A DNA stretch of 32,000 nucleotides from Candidatus Saccharimonadota bacterium (GCF_008189285.1 NZ_CP043315.1:570001-602000); one strand, 5' to 3'. Counted from the first letter of the stretch, positions 321 through 32,000 are shown. Notes: generated by a model not told the origin, from the letters alone. Program-made: numbers and translations.

Positions 321-917
321 TTAAGCAGCTTCTGCTTTACCGAATACTTTATCCATTGAAATACCTCTTTTGATAGCGATCATTTTTGGAGATTGCATGC
401 TAAATACCCCTTTAAACAGAGCTTTAACAACGTTATGAGGGTTATTACTTCCAATAACCTTTACAACTGCATCTTTTACTCCCAAAGCATCTAATGAAGA
501 TCTAACTACTTCACTGGCAATGATACCAGTACCAACAGGAGCAGATCTTAAGCAAATTCTAGTGCTGCAATATTTTACTTCAGCATCATGATGGAATGTT
601 CTTCCTTCTTTCAGTGAAACTTTAAACATAGATCTAGAAGCTTTGTCCATAGCTTTTCTTACAGCATCAGAAACTTCTTTTGCCTTACCTAAGCTATATC
701 CTGCAGATCCATTTCCATCTCCAACTATTACAAACGCACAAACTCTTTGTCTTTTTCCACCTTTTGTAACAGCTGCAATCCAATTCAAAGAAAGAACGTG
801 ATTGATCAAATTTTCTTTCTTCCTGGAAGAATCAAATCTTCTATTGCGTGATCTTCTAGCTTGAGGAACACCTGCATTACTATCTTTATTAAAAGTATTT
901 TTAATAGTATTCATCAA
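321..917 (-). CDS. rpsE: 30S ribosomal protein S5
   Basis: ORF translation has the S5 core (AAVTKGGKRQRVCAFVIVGDGNG...GTGIIAS...NPHNVVKA). It sits after L18 in spc-operon order. Confidence 0.92.
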   Translation of the reverse strand: MMNTIKNTFNKDSNAGVPQARRSRNRRFDSSRKKENLINHVLSLNWIAAVTKGGKRQRVCAFVIVGDGNGSAGYSLGKAKEVSDAVRKAMDKASRSMFKVSLKEGRTFHHDAEVKYCSTRICLRSAPVGTGIIASEVVRSSLDALGVKDAVVKVIGSNNPHNVVKALFKGVFSMQSPKMIAIKRGISMDKVFGKAEAA

Positions 918-1276
918 AACTCCAATCCATTTTCTCTTGCAGAATCAGCAAGAGCTTTAATGCATCCATGCATTTGCCATCCACCTAAATCAAATACGAT
1001 TTTAGTAATCTTTTTTGCTTTTAGTTTATCTGCAATTGTTTTTCCGATCCATTTGCATCCCTCTACTCCATATGTCTTTATAGAGTCAGGGAAATCTTTT
1101 GAAATAGAGCTAGCAGATGCAATAGTTTTATGTTGCTCGTCATCTATTGCTTGAACATAAACAAATTTATTAGACTTAAAAACAGATAATCTTAATCTAT
1201 TATCATGATTGATAGATCTGATCTTAAATCTTCTTCTTCTTTGTCTTCTGCAAAATGATAAATCTAATCTAGACAT
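914..1276 (-). CDS. rplR: 50S ribosomal protein L18
   Basis: L18-like sequence (RLSVFKSNKFVYVQAIDD...DLGGWQMHGCIKALADSARENGLEF). Four-nt overlap with rpsE. spc-operon order. Confidence 0.9.
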   Translation of the reverse strand: MSRLDLSFCRRQRRRRFKIRSINHDNRLRLSVFKSNKFVYVQAIDDEQHKTIASASSISKDFPDSIKTYGVEGCKWIGKTIADKLKAKKITKIVFDLGGWQMHGCIKALADSARENGLEF

Positions 1277-1812
1277 TATCTTTTACCTTCCTTCTTGATT
1301 CTGGATTTCAAACCCAAAATTTCTCCACCTTTGTAAGCTATAGGCTTTCTATGTGAAGCAACTTCAGATGCAAATTGCTTTACCTTTTGAGCATCAATTC
1401 CTTCTATATCTATAATAACAGGCTTTACACAAGTCACCTTTATATAAGAAGGAATATCAACCACTATTGGGTGACTATAACCCAATAAAAGCTTAAGAGT
1501 TGATCCCTCAATGGAACTTTTATAACCAGTTCCAGAAAGAGTAAGAGTTACTTTAAATCCATCAGTAACGCCTTTAATTGCAGATACTATAATTGCTCTA
1601 ATAGTTCCAAGCATGGGGAAATTTTTATTTTTCTTATCATTTCCTCCATTCATGGAAAGCATAATAGAATTGTTATCAAGATTTAAATTCAAAAAAGAGG
1701 GTATATTTAATTCTCTTTCTCCTTTAGGTCCCTTAACAACAAGCATATTATCATTAAAATTACAGCTTATTTTATCTGAAAACATAATTGGATTTCTAGC
1801 TAATCTTGACAT
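1276..1812 (-). CDS. rplF: 50S ribosomal protein L6
   Basis: L6-like sequence (MSRLARNPI...VKGPKGE...GTGYK...LGYSHP...KGGEILGLK), located between S8 and L18. Confidence 0.9.
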   Translation of the reverse strand: MSRLARNPIMFSDKISCNFNDNMLVVKGPKGERELNIPSFLNLNLDNNSIMLSMNGGNDKKNKNFPMLGTIRAIIVSAIKGVTDGFKVTLTLSGTGYKSSIEGSTLKLLLGYSHPIVVDIPSYIKVTCVKPVIIDIEGIDAQKVKQFASEVASHRKPIAYKGGEILGLKSRIKKEGKR

Positions 1813-2189
1813 TAACGTACCTCACAAACTATTTCTCCACCAATGCCATGAGCGATTGCTGAAACATCAGATATAACTCCCTTTGAAGTGCTAAGAATTA
1901 ACATTTTAGAAATTTGTCTTAATTTCTTAATTTGTGCCAAATCAACATGCACTCTTCTGGAAGATTTAGAAATTCTACGCAAACTAGATATTACAGGATA
2001 GCCTCGATCATACTTTAGAGTAATGATGATTTCTCTTTCTGATTCATCTAATTTTTCTATAAATCCTTCTTCTTTCATTACATTTAACACATTTCTAACA
2101 AAGTTAGATTTTTGAACATTTGTGGAATCCTTACCAACCAAGTAAGCATTCCTAATTCTTGTTAAAGTATCAGATATTTTATCATTCAT
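1812..2189 (-). CDS. rpsH: 30S ribosomal protein S8. The ORF is open to 2243, but the ATG at 2189 (MNDKISDTLTRIRNA) is the likely start.
   Basis: Canonical S8 N-terminus DTLTRIRNA begins right after the ATG at 2187-2189. The longer ORF would overlap the rpsN 3' end. Confidence 0.9.
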   Translation of the reverse strand: MNDKISDTLTRIRNAYLVGKDSTNVQKSNFVRNVLNVMKEEGFIEKLDESEREIIITLKYDRGYPVISSLRRISKSSRRVHVDLAQIKKLRQISKMLILSTSKGVISDVSAIAHGIGGEIVCEVR

Positions 2190-2196
2190 AACTACC

Positions 2197-2502
2197 TCAC
2201 CAACTTGCTTGCTCAACGCCAGGTAAGTAACCAAGCACGGCAAGTTCTCTTATTTTGTTTCTACAAATCCCGAATTCTCTATGAACTCCTCTAGGTCTTC
2301 CAGTTAATGCGCATCTTCTTCTGTATCTGATTCCAATGCTTTTTCTTGGAAGGTCGTTCAATTTGTTCATAGCTTCCATCTTTTCTTTCCAGTCTAGATT
2401 AGGATCTTTAATTAACTTCTTTAATTCTTTTCTTTTTGCTTCATATTTCTTACTTAATCTTAATCTCTCTAGATTTCTATAAATCATACTTGTCTTAGAC
2501 AT
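2197..2502 (-). CDS. rpsN: 30S ribosomal protein S14 (long, 101-aa type)
   Basis: S14 signature at the C-terminus (RCALTGRPRGVHREFGICRNKIRELAVLGYLPGVEQASW), located between L5 and S8. Confidence 0.92.
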   Translation of the reverse strand: MSKTSMIYRNLERLRLSKKYEAKRKELKKLIKDPNLDWKEKMEAMNKLNDLPRKSIGIRYRRRCALTGRPRGVHREFGICRNKIRELAVLGYLPGVEQASW

Positions 2503-3040
2503 TGTGTACCTTCTCTCTGAATGGGAGCCATAAGTTCTTTAAAAGCACTTCACAATCAGCATCACTAGATGCAGAAGTAATTAGCGCAATGTTCAAACCA
2601 AATGAAAATGTGCTATCGCTTTCAAAAAATACTGTATGATCTTTAATTCCTAAATTATAATTTCCATTACCATCAAAAGCATTTAATGACATTCCATGAA
2701 AATCTCTAACTCTTGGCAAAGCTAAATAAGCTAATCTTCTAACAAACTCATACATAGAAGCTTTTCTTAAAGTAACAAATACACCAGAAATCATTCCTTC
2801 TCTAACAGAGAATCCAGCAACTGATTTTTTTGCTTTTGCTTTTACAGGCAATTGTCCAGTAATTTTCATAATTTGATCAAAAATAAAATCAATTTTATTT
2901 GGATCTTTTAGATATTTACCACAACCAGCACTGATAACAACTTTAAGCAACTTTGGAACGCTAAAATCATTTTCTAAAGAAAGCTGACTTTTAACAGTTG
3001 GCATGATGTCGCTAAAATTTTCATAATGCTTCATGTTCAT
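2495..3040 (-). CDS. rplE: 50S ribosomal protein L5
   Basis: L5-like sequence (VPKLLKVVISAGCG...FRGMSLNAFDGNGNYNLGIKDHTVFFE), in spc-operon position. Confidence 0.9.
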   Translation of the reverse strand: MNMKHYENFSDIMPTVKSQLSLENDFSVPKLLKVVISAGCGKYLKDPNKIDFIFDQIMKITGQLPVKAKAKKSVAGFSVREGMISGVFVTLRKASMYEFVRRLAYLALPRVRDFHGMSLNAFDGNGNYNLGIKDHTVFFESDSTFSFGLNIALITSASSDADCEVLLKNLWLPFREKVHNV

Positions 3041-3354
3041 GATCTAACCTCTTTCTCAGATTTTCTAAATACTAATACTTTTTTATCATTCTTAAAGACA
3101 TATTTTGTTTTAGATGGCTTGCCATTTTCTATGTGAGCAACATTTGAAACATGCATTGATTTTTCACGTTTAATTATTCCACCTTGAGCAGTATTTGTAG
3201 GCTTTTGATGCATTGTTTGCATGTTAAGCCCTTCTACTATAACTCTCATATTCTTCTTATCAATAAGTGATATTTTACCTGAAGCGCCTTTGTCTTTTCC
3301 ATTAGTTATAATAACAACGTCGCCCATTTTAATTCTTAAATTAATTGCATTCAT
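3037..3354 (-). CDS. rplX: 50S ribosomal protein L24
   Basis: KOW-type N-terminus (IKMGDVVIITNGKDKGASGKI), located between L14 and L5. Confidence 0.9.
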   Translation of the reverse strand: MNAINLRIKMGDVVIITNGKDKGASGKISLIDKKNMRVIVEGLNMQTMHQKPTNTAQGGIIKREKSMHVSNVAHIENGKPSKTKYVFKNDKKVLVFRKSEKEVRS

Positions 3355-3355
3355 A

Positions 3356-3715
3356 TTAATACACCTTCAGAGCTTTTGATGTAATTTTTGCATTTACACT
3401 TCCACTCTCTCTTGCAACACATCCAAGAACTCTAGTTCCAATCATTTCATTTTTTTCATTAATCAACACAGCAGCGTTGTCAGAATATTTCAATGAAACT
3501 CCATTTTTTCTATTAATAATTCCCTTAGTGCGCACTATAACAGCATTGTAAACATCTCCTGATTTTACTTTAGCATTAGGCTCAGCATCTATAACAGAAA
3601 TTTTAATAATCATTCCAACTTCAGCTCCACCTTGAAGAGATCCCATGTTAAAACATCTTACCTTCTTAGCGCCAGAGTTATCAGCAACATTTAAAACAGT
3701 TCCTTTATAAATCAT
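3356..3715 (-). CDS. rplN: 50S ribosomal protein L14
   Basis: Strong L14 match (MIYKGTVLNVADNSGAKKVRCF...AVIVRTK...SLKYSDNAAVLIN). Confidence 0.95.
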   Translation of the reverse strand: MIYKGTVLNVADNSGAKKVRCFNMGSLQGGAEVGMIIKISVIDAEPNAKVKSGDVYNAVIVRTKGIINRKNGVSLKYSDNAAVLINEKNEMIGTRVLGCVARESGSVNAKITSKALKVY

Positions 3716-4332: not shown

Positions 4333-4447
4333 GTTGGTTACCATAGCGGAAAACATAACACCCGATTCCATCCCGAACTCGGCAGTGAAAGTTTCCAGCG
4401 CTGATGGTAGTGCATCTTAAGGTGTGCGAGAGTAAGACGTTGCCAAC
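4333..4447 (+). rRNA. rrf: 5S ribosomal RNA
   Basis: Contains the conserved 5S strings CCAUAGCG, CCCGAACUCGGCAGUGAAA, AGCGCUGAUGGUAGUG and GCGAGAGUAAGACGUUGCCAAC. The terminal helix pairs 4333-4341 with 4439-4447. A T-run follows. Confidence 0.88.
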
Positions 4448-4622
4448 TTTTTTTCAATTTAAATTATCAATCAATTTTTTTAGATGAAGCTTGTTTTAGC
4501 AATTTTTATTATTACACAATTTTTTTATTTTTTATTAATTCAATTTTTATTTTTTATAATTTATAATTTCAAATTTATTATCAATATATCATTTAAAATA
4601 ATTTATTTATATAATTTTCATA

Positions 4623-5410: not shown

Positions 5411-5523
5411 ATAAGATCTCTTATCTATAAATATATTACTTGATTTTAACTAATATCAAAAATTTATTTTCACATATTTTTATACAAATATTTCATTTCA
5501 TCATCAAAAAACATCATTTTTCA

Positions 5524-5551
5524 TTGACAATTACTTCTTGTGGGGTAAGAT
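5524..5551 (+). promoter_or_regulatory. Candidate sigma70-type promoter of the left cassette. It lies inside the inverted repeat.
   Basis: TTGACA (5524-5529), 16-nt spacer, TAAGAT (5546-5551), then a G-rich RBS (AGGGGGG) 5-6 nt before the ATG at 5575. It is conserved in the mirror copy with one spacer mismatch. Confidence 0.4.
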
Positions 5552-5574
5552 TGTAGTAATTTAGGGGGGTTGTT

Positions 5575-6870
5575 ATGAAGAACCTGAGAATTTTGATACT
5601 AGCTATGATGTTAGTTGGAGCGAGAGAGTCTATATTTGCTGGAGAAGGGGATTTGAGTGAAAATCCTAGTATAGTAGAGGTAAAGGCTAAAAAAGGAATA
5701 TTGGATAAGTTTAGTCCAACTTTGTATGAAAAAGGGATGAAGTCTATTGAGAAGATTTGCCCAAAGAAATCTCATGCAGAAAAAGAAAGGCTATATTTTA
5801 TAGTATTAGCTAACAAAGGCGCTGGGGGGAGATATGCGATTTCTATATCTAAGATGCTTGATGAGCAACTTGGTTGGGAAGAAGGAAAGCATAGAGTAAG
5901 ATTGGAATTAGTTAATTATGCATACAAGACAAGGCATGCATTGAGTGAGATTTCTGGAGCTCAAGTTTTGGTAGATTCTATACATGGTATGGCCGATGAT
6001 ATACATCAATCTAAGCTAAGCGAGTTGATTGAGTTTGCAGATTACTTGCTAAAGAGTCATGAGAATGGTGAAGTAGTGGACTGGAAGCTAGAAGCAAAGA
6101 GAGCACAGTTTCACATCAATCCCCCAACAGATAAAGATGATCTGGAAGATGTATTCCTGTACCAAAGAGATCAAAAGGTTAGAAAAATGAGAGGGGCTTT
6201 GAGGAAGTTTATTGGGGCAATTAGTTATAGCAGCGATCTTTCTCATGAAGATTTATCTAAGATGTTTTCGGAAGATAAAGAGCAATGCAAGAAAGCAATC
6301 ATTGATGCATTTGAAGCAAATGATAATGTTTTTAGAAAGAGATTATTCCCATCAAATCCAAGCTCAATCGAAGAAGAAAGAGTTATAAGATGGTTATTTG
6401 AATCCTTAGAGTTAGATATAAACCCAATCTTTGCTAAATACAAAGATGAGTTTAAGAAAATGCGCCAAGAAGAAACAGATGCAATGTGGTCAGATAAGTC
6501 TAAAGCTCCTAAAGTTAGCCCAGATCTAGATGAATCAGATATCAATGCAATGATATGTTTGTATGGTATTGGAGAATTGCATGAATTTATATTTAATAAT
6601 TATTTGAAAGATGCGCTTGTTGTTGAATTTAACAAGATAACTGAAGAGAATAAAAGTTATAAAGATTGCTCATTAAGCGCAGAAACTCTATCACTAGGAG
6701 GGATTGCATTTGAAACATGTAATGGCAATCAAAAAATAGCGATTCATCATATTAAGTATGGAGCATACGAAGCTGCCAAAGAACACATCGATGCATTCGT
6801 AAAATCTTATGTTATGCCAAGAGCAGAAGTTTTTGCTAAAAACTATGTTGAGAATTTAAAGAAATCTTAA
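5575..6870 (+). CDS. Secreted (Sec signal peptide) protein of unknown function, VgrG-linked paralogue A (431 aa)
   Basis: N-terminus MKNLRILILAMMLVGARESIFA|GEG looks like an SPase I signal peptide. It has no Cys lipobox. The gene lies 36 nt upstream of vgrG. I recognise no family. Confidence 0.8.
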   Translation: MKNLRILILAMMLVGARESIFAGEGDLSENPSIVEVKAKKGILDKFSPTLYEKGMKSIEKICPKKSHAEKERLYFIVLANKGAGGRYAISISKMLDEQLGWEEGKHRVRLELVNYAYKTRHALSEISGAQVLVDSIHGMADDIHQSKLSELIEFADYLLKSHENGEVVDWKLEAKRAQFHINPPTDKDDLEDVFLYQRDQKVRKMRGALRKFIGAISYSSDLSHEDLSKMFSEDKEQCKKAIIDAFEANDNVFRKRLFPSNPSSIEEERVIRWLFESLELDINPIFAKYKDEFKKMRQEETDAMWSDKSKAPKVSPDLDESDINAMICLYGIGELHEFIFNNYLKDALVVEFNKITEENKSYKDCSLSAETLSLGGIAFETCNGNQKIAIHHIKYGAYEAAKEHIDAFVKSYVMPRAEVFAKNYVENLKKS

Positions 6871-6906
6871 GATAATCTTAATCAATGAAGTCTATGCTTT
6901 GTCAAA

Positions 6907-9900
6907 ATGCAAAACATATCTGGCGGTAAAAGAAAAAGAGGAAGTGATGATGATATTCAATCTACTGTAGTAGTTGAAGATAATCGTCGTATTGTTAAAG
7001 TAGAAAATAAGCAAGAGCAGGTAGAGCCTGATTCTAAGAAGCAAAAGAAAGCTGATCCGTATAATATAGAATGGGTCGCAACATTTAACTATGACTTAAC
7101 CGATAAACCAGAAGACTATGTTGGTCATGTGTTTGTTTTAAATATACAAGAAGGTTTATCTGAAGCTTTTTGTGTAAATGGATCAGGATCTTTTAAAAAT
7201 AAGCAAGAAAATATGGTTGGCAAGAAAGTTAGACTTGGATTAAGTATTGGAATACCTGGTCTAGATACTAAATGTTGGCATGGCGTTGTAAATAAATGGG
7301 AATACTTAAGAGATAGTAGCGCTAAAGATGTAGATGGCAAGAAAATACATCACTATATGTATAAGTTTAGCATAATTCCTGAAATACAATTTAAGTTAAG
7401 CACAAAACGAAGCAGAGTTTTCTTCCCATCTGGTGATGATCAGTCATATTCTGATAATCAAGATATCAAGTTTAATAGGGCAAAATTGATGAATTATGTT
7501 GCAGAAAAACTGATTAAAGATAATGGAGTTGATTTACAAGATAATCCTCCAAATGAAAAAAGAAAGAAAAGTATATATGAAGAATATGATGCTATATACT
7601 CATTCTATGATTATTTAGTTGGAAATAGGGAAAATACTGATCCAGAAAATAAAGTTGATAGAGGGCTTCTTGAAAAATTAGATGAGAAAAATGGTATATC
7701 AAACAACATTGCAGTGCAAATTAAACTTGTTGATGCTTTTGGTAAATTGAGCAAATTTGATGGGAAGATACCAATCAAAGGTGCAGATAACTCTCAAAAG
7801 AATGCAATTGAAAAGGAAGAAGAAGCAACAAAACATAAATGCCCACCCAAGCGCCCATTTTTCAATTACGAAGATAAAACTAACTTTTCACAAACAGATG
7901 AAGAAGAGTTTCCTGAGTATATTGTGCAGTATGATGAGACGGATTGGGAATTTTTAAATAGATTGTGCAGGGAGTTTGGAGTGTATTATTGCTTCGAACA
8001 TACTGATTATCATACTGGAATGGTGTTTTATAGTAATCCTCAAGGAGGAGATTCTGACAATGCATTCGAGGATTTTGGAAGATTTGAGGAAGACGAAGAT
8101 GATGAGGATTATGAGTCGCAAGAAAATGAAGAGTCTTCAGCCGAATCCAAACCATATAAAACTTATCTAGGATATGAAAATGCGATTTTAGGCTATAAGC
8201 CAGATGGCTCATATGATGAGGAAGCGATTAAAGTTCATAAAAGTAAGCAGAAATCACTTAAATCTAATGAAACTTCTAATAGTTCTGCAGGAAATTCTGA
8301 TTCTGACGTAGGGAATAACGAAAATATCCAGAATAAAAGCGATGATAAAACAATTCCTCATGTAACACGTGGCGATGAGAATAAGGTTTTTGATTTGAGC
8401 GATCCATTCACTGATTCAAAGCCATTATATTATAGCAATGCAAATTTGAAGCGAGCAGATGATCAATATATTTCTCAATGGCATGAAGTGAATCAATTCG
8501 TTCAGCCTGCTCCACAACTTTATGGATATAATCCTGATTATGATCCAGAAAAGCGTAATGTTCTTCGTGAGCAAGATCAAAGTGAAGGTGGAGGCAGTTT
8601 TTCTGAAAGTGAAAGTGCAAATTCAGAAAAAGGAAGCAGTAGAATTCAGAATTACTATAATGAGAATTTTACATCTGAGAAACGAGTAAATGATTATAAT
8701 GAGCTATATAAACAGCATGCCCAATCTACTGAGACGGAATATTATGCGAAAACTTATCGTCAAGAAATTAGCCCTGGATATAAATTTGTCCTTACACATC
8801 ACCCTGATTTAGATATGAATGGGCAATATTATGTAAAGCGAGCTGTTCATAATTTGAGCTACGAAGTTGTAAATAATGCAGACCCCGAATCTGCAGATTT
8901 GGATGATATGGAGTTGCGTTATGAAAATGAAGCTGTGTTTGCAAAAATAGATCAGCCATTTAAGATTTTGCCAATTCCTCAAAGGAAAATTCTTGGAATT
9001 CAAACTGGAATTGTTGTTGGAGGGGAAGATCAGAAAATTTATACTAATCATATGGGTCATGTGAAGGTTTATTTTCATTGGGATAGCGCGAGAAAAGATT
9101 TAAGTGATGGAGAAAAACTTCAGCAAGCAATTTGGGTTCGTGTAGCTCAATGGGGAGGAGCTGGAAATGAATGGGGAGGATTTTTTGTACCTCGCGTTGG
9201 TCAAGAGGTTATAATTTCATTCGAAAATGGCAATCCTAGCAAGCCGATTGTGATGGGATGTTTGTATAATCGCTCAACAATGCCTCCATATAATTTAGTG
9301 GAAACTGAAGAAGTTACAGCGAAAACTGGAATCAAAACGGAGTCTTTAAAAGATGTTGAAGAAGGAGAAGAAAAAGGATTTAATGAGCTTAGCTTTGAGG
9401 ATAAAGCAAATGAGGAAAAGGTTTTTCTTCATGCTGAAAAAGATTATGAACAGATTATTAAAGATACGCGCAAATCTAGTATAGGAAGCGGTTCAGATGA
9501 ATTAACTATTAGCAAAGGTGATAGAAAAGTAGAGATTCTAGGCGAGGATGATCCAACAGACGGCTCTGGAAATGATATTCTGATTATTAAAAAAGGAAAT
9601 AAGGAAATAAAACTTGAATCTGAAGAGGCGAAGAATTTTCTTACAGAGCTAAAAAATGGAGATATAATTAATAAAATTGAAGAGGGGAATTATAAACTAG
9701 ATCTGCAGAAAGGAAATCAGGAGATCAAATTACAAGATGGGGATGTTGAAATTAGTATTGAAAAAGGAGATATGAAGATAAATATGAATCAAGGAGATCA
9801 AAAAGAAAATATTACTGGAAACAAAGATATAACTATTGTTAATGGAAACTATACTATAAAAATTGTGGGAGGAAATATGGAGATTGAGGCAAGTCAAATT

Positions 9901-10071
9901 TCATATCAGGCAACTGATTTCTCGATTAAATCTGCAGGTAATTTGAGCTTGGAAGCTGGTGGAAATCTGAGCATTAAGGGAGGAAATATAGAGATGAAAA
10001 GTGAAACAACGGCAGATATTGAGGCGTCAGCGATGATGAATATCAACGCAGGAATAGTGAATATAAACTAA
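6907..10071 (+). CDS. vgrG: Type VI secretion spike protein VgrG (gp27-gp5 fusion, 1054 aa) with a basic N-terminal extension and low-complexity insertions
   Basis: Hallmark VgrG strings are present: EGLSEAF; DWEFLNRLCREFGVYYCFEH; GIQTGIVVGGEDQKIYTNHMGHVKVYFHWD; IWVRVAQWGGAGNEWGGFFVPRVGQEVIISFENGNPSKPIVMGCLYN; GFNELSFEDKANEEKVFLHAEKD. The C-terminus has beta-helix-type short repeats (KGNQEIKLQDGDVEISIEKGDMKINMNQGD...). Confidence 0.92.
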   Translation: MQNISGGKRKRGSDDDIQSTVVVEDNRRIVKVENKQEQVEPDSKKQKKADPYNIEWVATFNYDLTDKPEDYVGHVFVLNIQEGLSEAFCVNGSGSFKNKQENMVGKKVRLGLSIGIPGLDTKCWHGVVNKWEYLRDSSAKDVDGKKIHHYMYKFSIIPEIQFKLSTKRSRVFFPSGDDQSYSDNQDIKFNRAKLMNYVAEKLIKDNGVDLQDNPPNEKRKKSIYEEYDAIYSFYDYLVGNRENTDPENKVDRGLLEKLDEKNGISNNIAVQIKLVDAFGKLSKFDGKIPIKGADNSQKNAIEKEEEATKHKCPPKRPFFNYEDKTNFSQTDEEEFPEYIVQYDETDWEFLNRLCREFGVYYCFEHTDYHTGMVFYSNPQGGDSDNAFEDFGRFEEDEDDEDYESQENEESSAESKPYKTYLGYENAILGYKPDGSYDEEAIKVHKSKQKSLKSNETSNSSAGNSDSDVGNNENIQNKSDDKTIPHVTRGDENKVFDLSDPFTDSKPLYYSNANLKRADDQYISQWHEVNQFVQPAPQLYGYNPDYDPEKRNVLREQDQSEGGGSFSESESANSEKGSSRIQNYYNENFTSEKRVNDYNELYKQHAQSTETEYYAKTYRQEISPGYKFVLTHHPDLDMNGQYYVKRAVHNLSYEVVNNADPESADLDDMELRYENEAVFAKIDQPFKILPIPQRKILGIQTGIVVGGEDQKIYTNHMGHVKVYFHWDSARKDLSDGEKLQQAIWVRVAQWGGAGNEWGGFFVPRVGQEVIISFENGNPSKPIVMGCLYNRSTMPPYNLVETEEVTAKTGIKTESLKDVEEGEEKGFNELSFEDKANEEKVFLHAEKDYEQIIKDTRKSSIGSGSDELTISKGDRKVEILGEDDPTDGSGNDILIIKKGNKEIKLESEEAKNFLTELKNGDIINKIEEGNYKLDLQKGNQEIKLQDGDVEISIEKGDMKINMNQGDQKENITGNKDITIVNGNYTIKIVGGNMEIEASQISYQATDFSIKSAGNLSLEAGGNLSIKGGNIEMKSETTADIEASAMMNINAGIVNIN

Positions 10072-10619
10072 TGAATATTGAGCAAATAATAAAAAATCAA
10101 CAACTAGCATGTGATTCAGAGAATACGATTTCTAGCAATGATTTTGAAGAAGTGATAGTAGATGGAAAAACTATTGAAAAACATGCAATGCAGGATGGAG
10201 TGAGAAATGGGGAAAGTATATATTATAAAGATGGGAAGATTTCTCAAAGAATAAATTACAAAGATGGGAAGATTTTTGGCGCAGTAGAAATATATAAAAA
10301 TGGATCTTTGAATTTAATTATGAATTATAAGAATGAAAAGCCAAATGGGCCTATGTATGTTTTTGAAAAAGGGAAATTATCACAAATAGGATTTTATAAA
10401 GATGAAAAGAAACATGGGAAATTCTTTGTTTTTAATAATGAATATCTATCAAAAGAAGAAAATTATAAAGATGATTTATTGGAAGGAATTTCAATTATAT
10501 ACTATCCAAAATCTACAAATATTTTTGAAATTGGAGAATATTTTGCAGGAGACAAAAATGGATCCTGGAAGCAATTTGACTTAGATGGAAACATTATCAA
10601 AGAAGAATTCTTCGATTAA
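10071..10619 (+). CDS. MORN-repeat-variant / YwqK-antitoxin-like protein (182 aa)
   Basis: Reiterated Y-K-D/N-G-K...G units (YYKDGKISQRINYKDGKIFGAVEIYKNGSL..NYKNEKPNGPMYVFEKGKL..FYKDEKKHGKF). The ATG overlaps the vgrG TAA by 1 nt (TAATG). Confidence 0.7.
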   Translation: MNIEQIIKNQQLACDSENTISSNDFEEVIVDGKTIEKHAMQDGVRNGESIYYKDGKISQRINYKDGKIFGAVEIYKNGSLNLIMNYKNEKPNGPMYVFEKGKLSQIGFYKDEKKHGKFFVFNNEYLSKEENYKDDLLEGISIIYYPKSTNIFEIGEYFAGDKNGSWKQFDLDGNIIKEEFFD

Positions 10620-10704
10620 AGTGTATTTGCCCTACCAAAGAAAATAGTAATAATTTATAGATATTTATACAATATTGGAATTTCATTTATAGTTTTGTAT
10701 AATC

Positions 10705-11310
10705 TTAATTTACAAAAGACGCATTCATCAACTTTGCTCTATTAAACTTAATATCTTGATTATCTGAATACGATTGATCATCACCAGATGGGAAGAAAAC
10801 TCTGCTTCGTTTTGTGCTTAACTTAAATTGTATTTCAGGAATTATGCTAAACTTATACATATAGTGATGTATTTTCTTGCCATCTACATCTTTAGCGCTA
10901 CTATCTCTTAAGTATTCCCATTTATTTACAACGCCATGCCAACATTTAGTATCTAGACCAGGTATTCCAATACTTAATCCAAGTCTAACTTTCTTGCCAA
11001 CCATATTTTCTTGCTTATTTTTAAAAGATCCTGATCCATTTACACAAAAAGCTTCAGATAAACCTTCTTGTATATTTAAAACAAACACATGACCAACATA
11101 GTCTTCTGGTTTATCGGTTAAGTCATAGTTAAATGTTGCGACCCATTCTATATTATACGGATCAGCTTTCTTTTGCTTCTTAGAATCAGGCTCTACCTGC
11201 TCTTGCTTATTTTCTACTTTAACAATACGACGATTATCTTCAACTACTACAGTAGATTGAATGTCATCATCACTTCCTCTTTTTCTTTTACCACCAGATA
11301 TGTTTTGCAT
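10705..11310 (-). pseudogene. Truncated vgrG 5' copy. It has 196 codons identical in protein to vgrG, then 5 unrelated codons and a stop. The start codon is intact.
   Basis: The ORF translation is identical to VgrG residues 1-196. It lacks the gp27 remainder and the gp5 domain. Homology ends at 10723. Confidence 0.8.
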
Positions 11311-11346
11311 TTTGACAAAGCATAGGCTTCATTGATTAAGATTATC

Positions 11347-12645
11347 TTAAGATTTCTTTAAATTCTCAACATAGTTTTTAGCAAAAACTTCTGCTTTTGG
11401 CATAACATAAGATTTTACAAATGCATCGATGTGTTCTTTGGCAGCTTCTCCATGTTTAATATAATAAATGGTCGTGCCTTGCGAAGCATTGCATATATTG
11501 AATGATATTTGATTGATATTAAGTTGATTGTCTTTATTTTCTTCATTTATCTTACCAAGCTCTTTACTCAAAGCAACTGCAATGTATTCATTAAATATGA
11601 AATGGTATAAATCGTCTCTTATATATGTTCTTGTCATTGCAATTTTATCTGATTCATCTAGATCTTGGCTAACTTTAGGAGCTTTAGACTTATCTGACCA
11701 CATTGCATCTGTTTCTTCTTGGCGCATCTTCTTGAACTTAGCTTTGTATTCTTCAAATATAGGATCTATTTCTAAATCTAAAGCACTTAATAGATATCGA
11801 ATAGTGCTTGCTTCTTCTTGATCGCTAGGACATCTTAGATCACATAATCTTATATAAGAGCATCTGTCATAATCTGCTATTATATCAAGCATGAATTGAA
11901 AGCATTGCTCTTCATCTTGAGAAAAAAGTTCTTTCAAATCTTCATTATCTACATGTCTTCTAGCTCCTAATCCTGAAAGACATTGTCTCAAAGCCCCTCT
12001 CATTTTTCTAACCTTTTGATCTCTTTGGTACAGGAATACATCTTCCAGATCATCTTTATCTGTTGGGGGATTGATGTGAAACTGTGCTCTCTTTGCTTCT
12101 AGCTTCCAGTCCACTACCTCACCATTCTCATGACTCTTTAGCAAGTAATCTGCAAACTCAATCAACTCGCTTAGCTTAGATTGATGTATATCATCGGCCA
12201 TCTGCTCTATTGCTGAAGTTAATACAGATGCATCTTCTGGAAGATTCGATTTAATCTCATAAATATATCGCACTATCATATATTCTGTTTTGTCATCAAA
12301 TGATGATAATTTATAATCCAGCATATTTTGCAATCCCTGCTCATCATACTTTTTGAGCGAAATAACAAAACTATCATCATCATTACCTTTAGACATTTGC
12401 AAATATATCATCAATTTATACTTGCCATTAGATTCATTTGGGCACAATTTCTTAGTTTCATCTAAGTATTCTTCATACAATTCTTGAGTATAGAAATCAA
12501 AACGATTTTCATCATTTGAACTTTCTGATTTCTCATCTATATCAACTCTGCTAGGATTTTCACTCAAATCCCCTTCTCCAGCAAATATAGACTCTCTCGC
12601 TCCAACTAACATCATAGCTAGTATCAAAATTCTCAGGTTCTTCAT
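11347..12645 (-). CDS. Secreted (Sec signal peptide) protein of unknown function, VgrG-linked paralogue B (432 aa)
   Basis: It has the same 32-aa N-terminus and signal peptide as paralogue A. The central 72 aa are identical, a 29-aa block is near-identical, and the last 32 aa are near-identical. The rest is diverged. Confidence 0.8.
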   Translation of the reverse strand: MKNLRILILAMMLVGARESIFAGEGDLSENPSRVDIDEKSESSNDENRFDFYTQELYEEYLDETKKLCPNESNGKYKLMIYLQMSKGNDDDSFVISLKKYDEQGLQNMLDYKLSSFDDKTEYMIVRYIYEIKSNLPEDASVLTSAIEQMADDIHQSKLSELIEFADYLLKSHENGEVVDWKLEAKRAQFHINPPTDKDDLEDVFLYQRDQKVRKMRGALRQCLSGLGARRHVDNEDLKELFSQDEEQCFQFMLDIIADYDRCSYIRLCDLRCPSDQEEASTIRYLLSALDLEIDPIFEEYKAKFKKMRQEETDAMWSDKSKAPKVSQDLDESDKIAMTRTYIRDDLYHFIFNEYIAVALSKELGKINEENKDNQLNINQISFNICNASQGTTIYYIKHGEAAKEHIDAFVKSYVMPKAEVFAKNYVENLKKS

Positions 12646-12668
12646 AACAACCCCCCTAAATTACTACA

Positions 12669-12696
12669 ATCTTACCCCACAAAAAGTAATTGTCAA
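12669..12696 (-). promoter_or_regulatory. Mirror copy of the cassette promoter
   Basis: Reverse complement gives TTGACA (12696-12691), 16 nt, TAAGAT (12674-12669), plus the same RBS before the ATG at 12645. Confidence 0.4.
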
Positions 12697-12873
12697 TGAA
12701 AAATGATGTTTGACTAATAAATTAACCAATAAAAGGTAATTCTAAATTCATTTTTAATGTTTTAATGTATATTAATGCCTAATTCAATGCATTTCAAATT
12801 ATCGACAAATACATTACGTAAATGCAGTTCTTTTAGATTGTTTTTTGTCAATACATGTTGTAACATTCTTTTG

Positions 12874-12947
12874 CGGGGCGTAGCGCAGTCTGGTAGCGCA
12901 TCTGCTTTGGGAGCAGGGGGTCGGAAGTTCGAATCTTCTCGCCCCGA
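12874..12947 (+). tRNA. tRNA-Pro (anticodon UGG)
   Basis: Cloverleaf folded by hand. Acceptor CGGGGCG/CGCCCCG, D-arm GCGC..GCGC, anticodon loop UUUGGGA (UGG at 12908-12910), T-loop TTCGAAT. No encoded CCA. Confidence 0.9.
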
Positions 12948-12954
12948 TTGATTA

Positions 12955-13042
12955 GGAAGAGTGGCCGAGTGGCTGAAGGCGCATGCCTGGAAAGCATGTA
13001 TACGGTTTCACCGTATCGAGGGTTCGAATCCCTCTTCTTCCG
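12955..13042 (+). tRNA. tRNA-Ser (anticodon GGA), class II with a long variable arm
   Basis: Acceptor GGAAGAG/TTCTTCC, anticodon stem CATGC/GCATG with loop CUGGAAA, variable arm TACGG..CCGTA, T-arm GAGGG TTCGAAT CCCTC. Confidence 0.9.
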
Positions 13043-13155
13043 TATTAGTCGCCCGCAAAAATCTAAGAATAAAAGAGGGAAGAACGAAACGAATGGAATG
13101 AGTGGAAGTTAAATCCCTCTTCTTCCGTATTAGTCGCCCGCAAAAATCTAAGAAT
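13027..13155 (+). repeat. Two perfect 44-bp direct repeats (13027-13070 and 13112-13155). The first includes the last 16 nt of tRNA-Ser. This looks like an att-like scar.
   Basis: AATCCCTCTTCTTCCGTATTAGTCGCCCGCAAAAATCTAAGAAT occurs twice, 41 nt apart. The second copy is preceded by a degenerate T-arm (GTGGAAGTTAAATCCCTC). Confidence 0.9.
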
Positions 13156-13452
13156 TAAAAATAAGATTTTGAGAGAAAACGATAAATAGAAGTTAACTGA
13201 GCGCAGCGAAGAGAGTAAATTTAAATGTAATGCAAATTTATCAAGAGAGCGTAGCGAGCTGGAATGAGATTTTGAATTAAATGAAAAATTTAGTCATAAT
13301 TAAAATATGCTCAACGAACTATGTCAAGTAAATTTGTTTTTTGGTTATTCAAAAAATTACTATAAATCTCATATAATTTGCTAAAATATAAAAACTTTTT
13401 TCATTTCTCATTGTTATTAAATCATTTAAAATTTCTAACAATTATAAATCTG

Positions 13453-31179: not shown

Positions 31180-32000
31180 TTAACCTTCTTTTTTGTCTTT
31201 CTCTTCACTTGGTTCTTCTTGATTTTTAGTTGGATTTATCATTCCATGTAATTTTCTCTCAATTTCATCGCATACTTCGGAATTCTCATAAAGATATTCT
31301 TTAACCGCTTCTCTTCCTTGTCCAACTTTTGTGTCTCCAATTGAATACCAAGAACCAGATTTTGTAATTAAATCATACTTCACACCTAAATCAACAATCT
31401 CTCCTAATTTAGAAACTCCTTCTCCGAAAAGTATTTCAAATTCTGCTATTTTAAGAGGAGGCGCCATCTTGTTTTTTACAACTTTAACTCTAGTTTGATG
31501 ACCATAAACGCTATCATTTTTCTTTAGTGCAGCAATTTTTCTTATATCTAATCTAATTGAAGCATAGAATTTCAAAGCATTTCCACCAGTAGTTGTTTCT
31601 GGACTTCCAAACATAACACCTATTTTGTGTCTAATTTGATTAATAAATATCACAATGCATCCTGATTTTTTAACAACTCCAGTTAGCTTTCTCAATGCCT
31701 GACTCATCAATCTTGCATGAAGTCCCATATGGCTATCTCCCATATCTCCTTCTAGCTCTGCCTTAGGAACTAAAGCAGCAACACTATCTAAAACAATAAC
31801 TTTCATAGATTGAGATCTTACAAAAGTATCTATAATTTCTAACGCTTGCTCACCAGTATCTGGTTGAGAAAGAATAAATTTATCACCACTAAGGTTAACG
31901 CCTAATTTCTTAGCATATTCTGGATCCATCGCATGCTCTGTATCTACGAAAAGACATGTTCCATCTTTCTTTTGGGCCTCAGCAATTACTTGCAAAGCCA
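31180..32000 (-). CDS. recA: Recombinase RecA. The N-terminal part runs off the window.
   Basis: [107 protein letters not shown]. Confidence 0.95.

Follow-up and report, generated by a model that had tools for sequence, protein, structure and literature searches.

An inverted, mosaic duplication around the orphan vgrG of Candidatus Cytomitobacter indipagum: probable concerted evolution of paralogues with possible neutral flips

A 32,000-nucleotide stretch of the genome of Candidatus Cytomitobacter indipagum (NZ_CP043315.1, 570001-602000; referred to below as the window, with positions counted from its first nucleotide) carries vgrG, the gene for the spike protein of the type VI secretion system (T6SS), inside a mirror-image cassette. 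The 5' part of the vgrG operon occurs there twice, in opposite orientations, and each of the two arms has its own signal-peptide gene, which we call A and B. We consider it fairly likely that the cassette is an orphan vgrG islet whose paralogues are homogenised by conversion, and that it forms a largely neutral structure of flip-flop and concerted evolution, not a regulatory switch. According to the accessible text of the genome paper (bioRxiv 10.1101/719211), the organism is a Holosporaceae endosymbiont of the diplonemid Diplonema aggregatum with a genome of 628 kb and ~30% G+C; most T6SS components are present, and Hcp and TssJ are missing genome-wide. The same text stresses how few repeats and pseudogenes the genome has, and mentions neither an inverted duplication nor a paralogue pair or a truncated vgrG.

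The original prediction described two inverted arms (5509-7494 and 12712-10723), each with a promoter-like site, a ribosome-binding site (RBS), a signal-peptide gene, a 36-nt spacer and the first 196 codons of vgrG, and only the left of which continues into the full vgrG and the coupled MORN gene. Our repeat search and the layout of open reading frames (ORFs) agree with this anatomy. The repeat search resolved the arms into four nested inverted-repeat pairs, I1-I4 (Table 1). The innermost homology, put by the prediction at about 620 bp, is indeed a near-perfect inverted repeat, but it measures 726 bp with 11 mismatches, since the last 102 nt of A and B belong to it. Its longest perfect run is 488 nt (6955-7442), and the mismatches gather at both ends of the block. 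The spacer is likewise present in both arms, although with one mismatch (6891) instead of exact identity. An inverted repeat of such length and identity cannot have arisen by chance. No third copy of an arm, of A/B or of vgrG was found in the window, nor any remnant of a second MORN gene or vgrG 3' end in the spacer 10620-10722.

Table 1. Coordinates of the vgrG cassette, its inverted repeats and recA in the window
Feature	Position	Strand or orientation	Description
Gene A (FZC35_02605)	5575-6870	+	431 aa, Sec-type signal peptide, orphan family, two hypervariable segments
vgrG (tssI)	6907-10071	+	1054 aa, no toxin domain; TIGR03361, Phage_GPD, Phage_base_V, Gp5_trimer_C
MORN_2 / YwqK-family gene	10071-10619	+	Translationally coupled: start overlaps vgrG stop by 1 nt
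Convergent gap, MORN stop to stub stop	10620-10704		85 nt, no terminator-like hairpin
vgrG stub	10705-11310	-	201 aa; residues 1-196 as VgrG 1-196, then ASFVN and stop
Gene B (FZC35_02625)	11347-12645	-	432 aa, paralogue of A, 56% identity overall
Repeat pair I1	6769-7494 / 10723-11448	inverted	726 nt, 98-98.5%, 11 mismatches
Repeat pair I2	5989-6323 / 11867-12201	inverted	84%
Repeat pair I3	6370-6602 / 11585-11817	inverted	77%
Repeat pair I4	5509-5698 / 12522-12711	inverted	93%
Outer identical block, left arm	5509-5698	+	Promoter-like site, RBS AGGGGGG, start of A and signal peptide; 100% identity over 5520-5670
Outer identical block, right arm	12522-12711	-	Promoter-like site 12696-12669, RBS, signal peptide as in left arm
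Homogenised block inside A	5989-6323	+	Partner 11867-12201 in B; ~99-100% identity over 5987-6190, pS ~0
Second, partly homogenised block inside A	6370-6602	+	Partner 11585-11817 in B; 86-98% identity over 6434-6534
Left copy of 726-bp repeat	6769-7494	+	Last 102 nt of A, 36-nt spacer, vgrG codons 1-196
Right copy of 726-bp repeat	10723-11448	-	I1
Unique 3.2-kb core	7495-10722		Would invert by crossover in the 726-bp repeat
recA	31180-31995	-	RecA Pfam 2.5e-96; recombinase needed for any exchange between arms

The most telling evidence came from the base-by-base alignment of the arms. Taken by the prediction as matching copies, they do share the parts named above, but they are not uniform: blocks of 96-100% identity (approximately 5509-5690, 5987-6190, 6434-6534 and 6769-7494) alternate with segments of 40-55% identity that contain indels. 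In the codon analysis, the proportion of synonymous differences (pS) was 0 in the identical blocks and 0.5-0.95 in the two variable segments, where the proportion of nonsynonymous differences (pN) reached 0.4-0.57. A single duplication age cannot produce blocks with a pS of 0 next to saturated segments. Synonymous, spacer and upstream sites are thus identical within otherwise diverged paralogues, as expected under concerted evolution. Given this contrast, and given that no third copy turned up in the window or among the 5.8 and 1.84 billion database proteins searched (see below), the simplest reading is that of old paralogues repeatedly homogenised by conversion. The mismatches at both ends of the 726-bp block also match the conversion model developed for the tuf genes, in which efficiency falls toward the ends of homology and large heterologies block the tracts (PMC5485169). 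Overall, the arms bear the signature of repeated RecA-type gene conversion, and recombination between them is well supported by their sequences. It is important to note that this is evidence of gene conversion, and that neither crossover nor inversion is demonstrated by it.

Two other mechanisms were rejected. A diversity-generating retroelement as source of the variable segments would be expected to leave a reverse transcriptase or a template repeat, neither of which was found, and the differences between the variable segments include indels and all base types. As for a site-specific invertase, no recombinase gene was found among the scanned window ORFs, and the repeats are 190-726 nt of gene sequence, not sites of tens of bp.

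The identities of the genes in the cassette are clear. The product of A is 100% identical to the C. indipagum hypothetical protein FZC35_02605, B corresponds to FZC35_02625, and the MORN protein is FZC35_02615. The 1054-aa protein is a 100% match to the annotated VgrG of this organism, in which gp27-like hub, gp5 OB-fold and beta-helix domains are recognised above curated cutoffs (TIGR03361, 4e-80 and 269.8 bits against a cutoff of 186.35; TIGR01646, 177.7 bits against 121.8). VgrG has long acidic, low-complexity inserts. Its residues 1-56 (6907-7075, mirrored in the stub at 11310-11142) are species-specific, the VgrG proteins of C. primus and of the metagenome-assembled genome HK-STAS-PROT-4 aligning with it only from residues 57 and 71; the basic runs GKRKRG and KKQKK in this N-terminus resemble eukaryotic nuclear-localisation signals. 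The MORN gene scores 34.7 bits with MORN_2 PF07661 (gathering cutoff 29.6). At NCBI it is listed as a YwqK-family antitoxin, as is the C. primus orthologue, and the accessible text of the genome paper calls the YwqK-family protein adjoining VgrG a YwqK immunity protein (bioRxiv 10.1101/719211).

A and B themselves form an orphan family. A word-indexed search of 5.8 billion proteins returned A and B alone, a full HMMER profile search of 1.84 billion representatives returned only the queries, and comparison with Pfam, NCBIfam and PDB sequences gave nothing above noise. An AlphaFold2 model of A built from the two-sequence alignment was unusable (pLDDT 37). Neither VgrG nor A nor B gave a hit to a toxin domain. 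The codon analysis places B under constraint within the conserved blocks. An exact-protein look-up of A, VgrG, MORN and B in a contig index found no alternative assembly or orientation on record.

The expression signals are mirrored as well. The shared promoter-like element, TTGACA-16-TAAGAT, is present in both arms (5524-5551 on the plus strand and 12696-12669 on the minus strand), as predicted; the hexamer match as such carries no weight, with 62 matches in this AT-rich DNA against 56 expected from shuffles, and it is only the conservation in both arms that marks the site as a putative promoter. The outer ends of the arms lie ~15 nt upstream of the TTGACA site, and AGGGGGG stands 6 nt before the ATG in both. 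A second promoter-like site is found inside the repeat just upstream of vgrG and of the stub (6848-6876 and 11369-11341). In the gap between the convergent MORN gene and stub (10620-10704), a terminator search found none, and RNA folding gave z = 0.13. Transcription running on from B and the stub would yield antisense RNA to MORN and vgrG, and the stub and B would in turn be covered in antisense by transcription running on from the left.

Relatives allowed us to look at the history of the locus. Two assemblies of the sister species C. primus, both from host strain YPF1604, were reached via the MORN orthologue (67% identity); CP043316.1 is Illumina-only, and OX638200.1 is built from PacBio HiFi reads (PMC13598402). 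In C. primus, vgrG-MORN is flanked by inverted mosaic paralogues, Cp_A (532 aa, minus strand) and Cp_B (535 aa, plus strand), whose inverted blocks are 87-93% identical. The C. indipagum B protein (Ci_B) and Cp_B share 32% identity (E = 1e-16), which puts all four proteins in one family, and the variable regions of Cp_A/Cp_B lie at the same alignment positions as those of A/B. In the conserved blocks of the C. primus pair, pN is ~0 and pS is 0.08-0.56. Such values indicate that both copies are constrained and functional and that conversion there is older or rarer. The paralogues are 56% identical within C. indipagum and 69% within C. primus, whereas identity between the species is 20-32%; the higher identity within species indicates concerted evolution. 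In the first variable region, Ci_B is no less close to Cp_B (30%) than to the A protein of its own genome, Ci_A (24%), which suggests that the divergence of the paralogues is older than the split between C. indipagum and C. primus. Thus, of the predicted layout, the inverted paralogue pair around vgrG-MORN recurs in a relative, while the inward-facing arrangement and the stub do not.

Other relatives were less informative. HK-STAS-PROT-4 (a 558-kb genome) was the sole useful relative obtained in a scan of genome contigs with VgrG, its VgrG being 42% and its MORN protein 53% identical to ours; it has no repeats. Its MORN/YwqK gene follows a gene for a 441-aa signal-peptide protein on the strand opposite vgrG (L001 7760-12823); although this protein resembles A and B in size class and position, BLASTP of A and B against it found no similarity. 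In the same genome, priA lies 1 kb from vgrG, compared with 18 kb in the window. A scan of metagenome contigs with a three-species VgrG alignment found no close relative. A Cytomitobacter-like contig (Logan SRR12358676, L023 1646-2395) encodes a MORN protein 74% identical to ours and contains neither a paralogue nor a stub. The context of vgrG-MORN differs in every genome examined, so that the neighbourhood is prone to rearrangement.

Both C. primus assemblies agree fully across the cassette and differ beside it. The first difference is a deletion of 272 nt, flanked by short direct repeats, in Cp_B (L021 11565-12348 versus L022), and the second is an inversion of ~11 kb that starts 45 nt after the Cp_B stop (L021 12349 onward versus L022). 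In addition, the last ~120 nt of Cp_B hold five differences between the assemblies, three of which match Cp_A. Taken with the inversion, these imply a further inverted copy of the paralogue 3' end ~11 kb away. The ~11-kb difference may be genuine, as an inversion or polymorphism, or may come from short reads mis-joined at that repeat.

These observations lead us to the following scenario. The cassette would be an islet of a reduced, Hcp-less T6SS. The front of its operon, from the putative promoter through the signal-peptide gene and the spacer to nucleotide 588 of vgrG, is present twice, in inverted orientation, and A and B would be old paralogues of a fast-evolving, genus-restricted family. 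The four homologous blocks would be homogenised again and again by RecA/RecFOR-dependent gene conversion, and the two hypervariable segments would stay different, with MutSL and the lack of homology stopping the tracts there. The 726-bp inner block may also serve as a substrate for reciprocal exchange, and the 3.2-kb core with the vgrG 3' part and MORN probably flips now and then. By virtue of the mirror symmetry, what a flip rebuilds would be equivalent to the operon before it, with promoter and VgrG protein unchanged. Which pathway acts, that flips occur and that they are neutral is what we infer from this arrangement. The required genes fit: RecA, RecFOR and MutSL are reported as present and RecBCD as absent in the accessible text of the genome paper (bioRxiv 10.1101/719211), and recA was found within the window, as predicted, cut by the window end with its N-terminus beyond. 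Since no recombinase or integrase domain was found in the scanned window ORFs of at least 80 aa, any flip would need homologous recombination.

The original prediction went further and proposed that a single RecA-type crossover makes the cassette a two-state switch. The substrate (inverted homology of 726 nt and 98.5% identity around the segment, as expected for RecA-dependent inversion), recA and recombination between the arms are the parts that find support; an obvious differential output does not. A crossover in the 726-bp block would put the core behind B and the stub behind A, and on mechanistic grounds this 3.2-kb flip is plausible. However, the cassette has a single 3' part, and inversion would make no obvious change to what is expressed. 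Since the two arms share the promoter-like site, the RBS, the spacer, the 3' end of A/B and VgrG 1-196, equivalent signals would drive A, B, the stub, VgrG and MORN in either state. For this reason we file the cassette with concertedly evolving inverted paralogues and flip-flop isomers and not with switches. It is probably not a real on/off switch, a functional output being unlikely a priori.

We are aware that several points weigh against our scenario. RuvABC is named only for another species in the accessible text of the genome paper and not reported for C. indipagum (bioRxiv 10.1101/719211); the crossover-resolving capacity is thus uncertain, and crossovers may be rare compared with non-crossover conversion. 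The core flip is deduced from repeat geometry, the alternative orientation having neither a read-level nor a comparative sighting, and both C. primus assemblies show the same core orientation. A and B face inward in C. indipagum, while their counterparts face outward in C. primus, which has no vgrG stub, and the Cytomitobacter-like relative has secG directly after vgrG-MORN. The difference in orientation and the secG junction imply a history more complex than one old duplication, with independent duplications as a possibility. Finally, all eight nucleotide differences between the vgrG 5' part and the stub fall at third codon positions and are synonymous, which a view of the stub as a neutral leftover does not predict: P is ~0.0015 if the stub is neutral and only vgrG is constrained. 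Six of the eight lie at most 52 nt from the inner edge (P = 0.004 for these six alone). Flipping does not explain them, since these sites move together with the core every time, and a crossover would almost never bring them into the functional gene. Nor does gene conversion alone create such a synonymous bias. A selected product, a recent deletion that left a remnant of two complete mirror-image operons, and chance remain as explanations.

The first of these leads to the best placed, if still unlikely, alternative: that the stub operon behind B is functional, its 201-aa VgrG N-terminal fragment (a basic N-terminus resembling a nuclear-localisation signal plus part of the gp27-like domain) being selected, the duplication kept for its sake and the recombination incidental. 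The synonymous-only differences over 196 codons that are identical in protein speak for it, as do the intact ORF with the same RBS and spacer and the constraint on B in the conserved blocks. A fragment that ends inside the gp27-like domain is, however, unlikely to fold as a normal spike subunit. Neither C. primus nor HK-STAS-PROT-4 nor the Cytomitobacter-like relative has a stub, and the same pattern of differences is expected from an ancestor with two complete mirror-image operons and a recent deletion.

We find it harder to believe in an adaptive two-state recombinational switch, in which RecA-dependent flips would alternate A or B as the gene operon-linked to vgrG-MORN, or crossovers in the other blocks would re-assort the hypervariable segments between two expression sites, either process creating population heterogeneity. 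It is tempting to suppose such a role, considering the 726-bp homology with three more nested pairs around the core, the presence of recA, the mirrored paralogues in C. primus and the ~11-kb inversion between its assemblies; the synonymous-only divergence of the vgrG 5' part would also fit both arms serving a functional gene. Yet the promoters, RBS, spacer and VgrG sequence would be identical in both states with no evident differential output, and A and B would each be expressed from their own copy in either state. Furthermore, a second orientation has not been sighted, the arrangement is absent in the Cytomitobacter-like relative, the six inner-edge differences are left unexplained by flipping, and the inversion in C. 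primus may have come from misassembled short reads, the two assemblies of the same host strain being Illumina-only in one case and HiFi in the other. A broader version of the same idea seems to us less credible again. It supposes a selected, invertase-free flip-flop device, in which crossovers in any of the four nested blocks would invert nested segments without breaking the operon, re-assort the hypervariable regions of A and B and change the paralogue in cis with vgrG-MORN, the synonymous-only divergence of the stub being the footprint of the use of both arms. If true, this device would enable an obligate endosymbiont that receives no genes horizontally to vary two host-facing proteins.

A static relic of a single duplication without ongoing exchange, in which the blocks reflect purifying selection or recency, is very unlikely: small endosymbiont genomes are generally stable, and the genome paper's accessible emphasis on few repeats and pseudogenes agrees with it, but a single age cannot explain identity at synonymous, spacer and promoter sites in four blocks with saturated segments between them, and neither the window nor the protein searches supplied a third donor copy or another homologue. 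Least probable of all is a mis-joined right arm or core orientation. In its favour, 0.7-kb repeats are unresolvable by 2x125 Illumina reads alone, and beside the same gene family the structure of the Illumina-only C. primus assembly disagrees with that of the HiFi one. Against it, the C. indipagum genome was closed in Unicycler from Nanopore reads and 3423x Illumina coverage according to the accessible text (bioRxiv 10.1101/719211), the arms are diverged, intact paralogous ORFs with unique segments instead of identical copies, and an inverted paralogue pair equivalent to this one is seen in the HiFi data for C. primus.

The surroundings of the cassette deserve a comment as well. The domain scan of the window ORFs found no T6SS gene other than vgrG and no PAAR, Hcp, adaptor or toxin domain, which upholds what the prediction said of their absence. 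Rfam detected only a 5S rRNA and two tRNAs in the window. The spc and alpha ribosomal-protein operons are normally contiguous and in the same orientation. Here, the spc operon (L14 to S5, 321-3715, minus strand) is divergent from the alpha operon (S13, S11, rpoA and L17, 15257-17517, plus strand), and an 11.5-kb block with the lone 5S rRNA gene, yraN, rnhA, the vgrG cassette, two tRNA genes and a photolyase gene lies between them. Such a divergence points to a possible old inversion or insertion at the site. The 5S rRNA gene (4333-4448, plus strand, 78.8 bits) has no 23S rRNA gene adjoining it. On the other side, tRNA-Pro (12874-12947) stands between the right arm and tRNA-Ser(GGA) (12955-13042). 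The last 16 nt of the latter and 32 nt downstream form a 48-nt direct repeat (13027-13074 and 13112-13159, 98%), which looks like an att-type scar of an integrated element, ~300-450 nt past the outer end of the right arm.

If our scenario is true, an actively recombining inverted duplication persists at the T6SS spike locus of an endosymbiont genome that has only 628 kb and has been described as stable, and the hypervariable signal-peptide paralogues A and B are the leading candidates for factors of this Hcp-less system that face the host or competitors. In a symbiont that cannot be cultured, the locus would serve as a natural read-out of RecA/RecFOR activity, and A, B and the VgrG N-terminal fragment are specific candidates for functional work. 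It also calls for caution with assemblies of such genomes, as those of C. primus disagree structurally beside the same gene family. In our view, the interest of the locus lies in a conserved pair of hypervariable paralogues at the spike locus of an extremely reduced symbiont, together with an oddly constrained stub.

Among known systems, the tufA/tufB genes of Salmonella and E. coli come closest; these inverted duplicates evolve in concert by RecA-dependent gene conversion and occasionally undergo inversions (PMC5485169, PMC6735719). As in our cassette, the inverted paralogues are near-identical, including at synonymous sites, conversion is weaker at the ends of homology and blocked by heterologies, and the same homology can invert. 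Unlike tuf, the cassette copies lie only 3.2-6.8 kb apart, form a mosaic with hypervariable segments and include a promoter and a partial second gene, the vgrG stub. Moreover, RecBCD being reported absent in the accessible account of C. indipagum, RecFOR would have to initiate the exchange.

In the sap system of Campylobacter fetus, RecA-dependent inversion takes place between oppositely oriented sapA homologues sharing a ~600-bp conserved 5' region. The invertible segment carries a single promoter and the homologues differ in their 3' parts, so that inversion changes the protein made. The vgrG cassette resembles sap in its long inverted 5' homology, in the lack of a dedicated invertase and in homologous recombination as the proposed engine. 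In contrast, its putative promoters lie outside the core in both arms and there is one 3' part, and an inversion would change nothing obvious.

The comparison can be extended to orphan vgrG islands and Rhs/effector orphan modules, which usually repeat 3' toxin-immunity parts in direct orientation and thereby give rise to new C-termini. The cassette shares with them a vgrG away from the core T6SS genes, accessory genes alongside and repeated gene fragments as homology. It differs in that the 5' end is repeated, inverted and without an alternative 3' module, and no PAAR, adaptor or toxin domain was detected. The T6SS that George et al. (bioRxiv 10.1101/719211) present for diplonemid Holosporaceae endosymbionts, as far as the accessible text describes it, is the same locus, with VgrG and an adjacent YwqK-family (MORN_2) protein.

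Flip-flop isomerisation of plastid genomes and the palindrome arms of the human Y chromosome provide a last parallel, with large inverted repeats homogenised by conversion (PMC3723533). There too, the spacer can invert with little or no functional consequence, although these systems are eukaryotic or organellar and much larger, while ours is a 7.2-kb bacterial cassette with hypervariable gene segments in its arms. The prediction that no T6SS locus organised as a palindromic vgrG switch had been described held within the literature we searched. On present evidence, the cassette does not represent a new kind of genetic switch; apparently undescribed in that literature, it nevertheless belongs to a well-known kind of genome structure.

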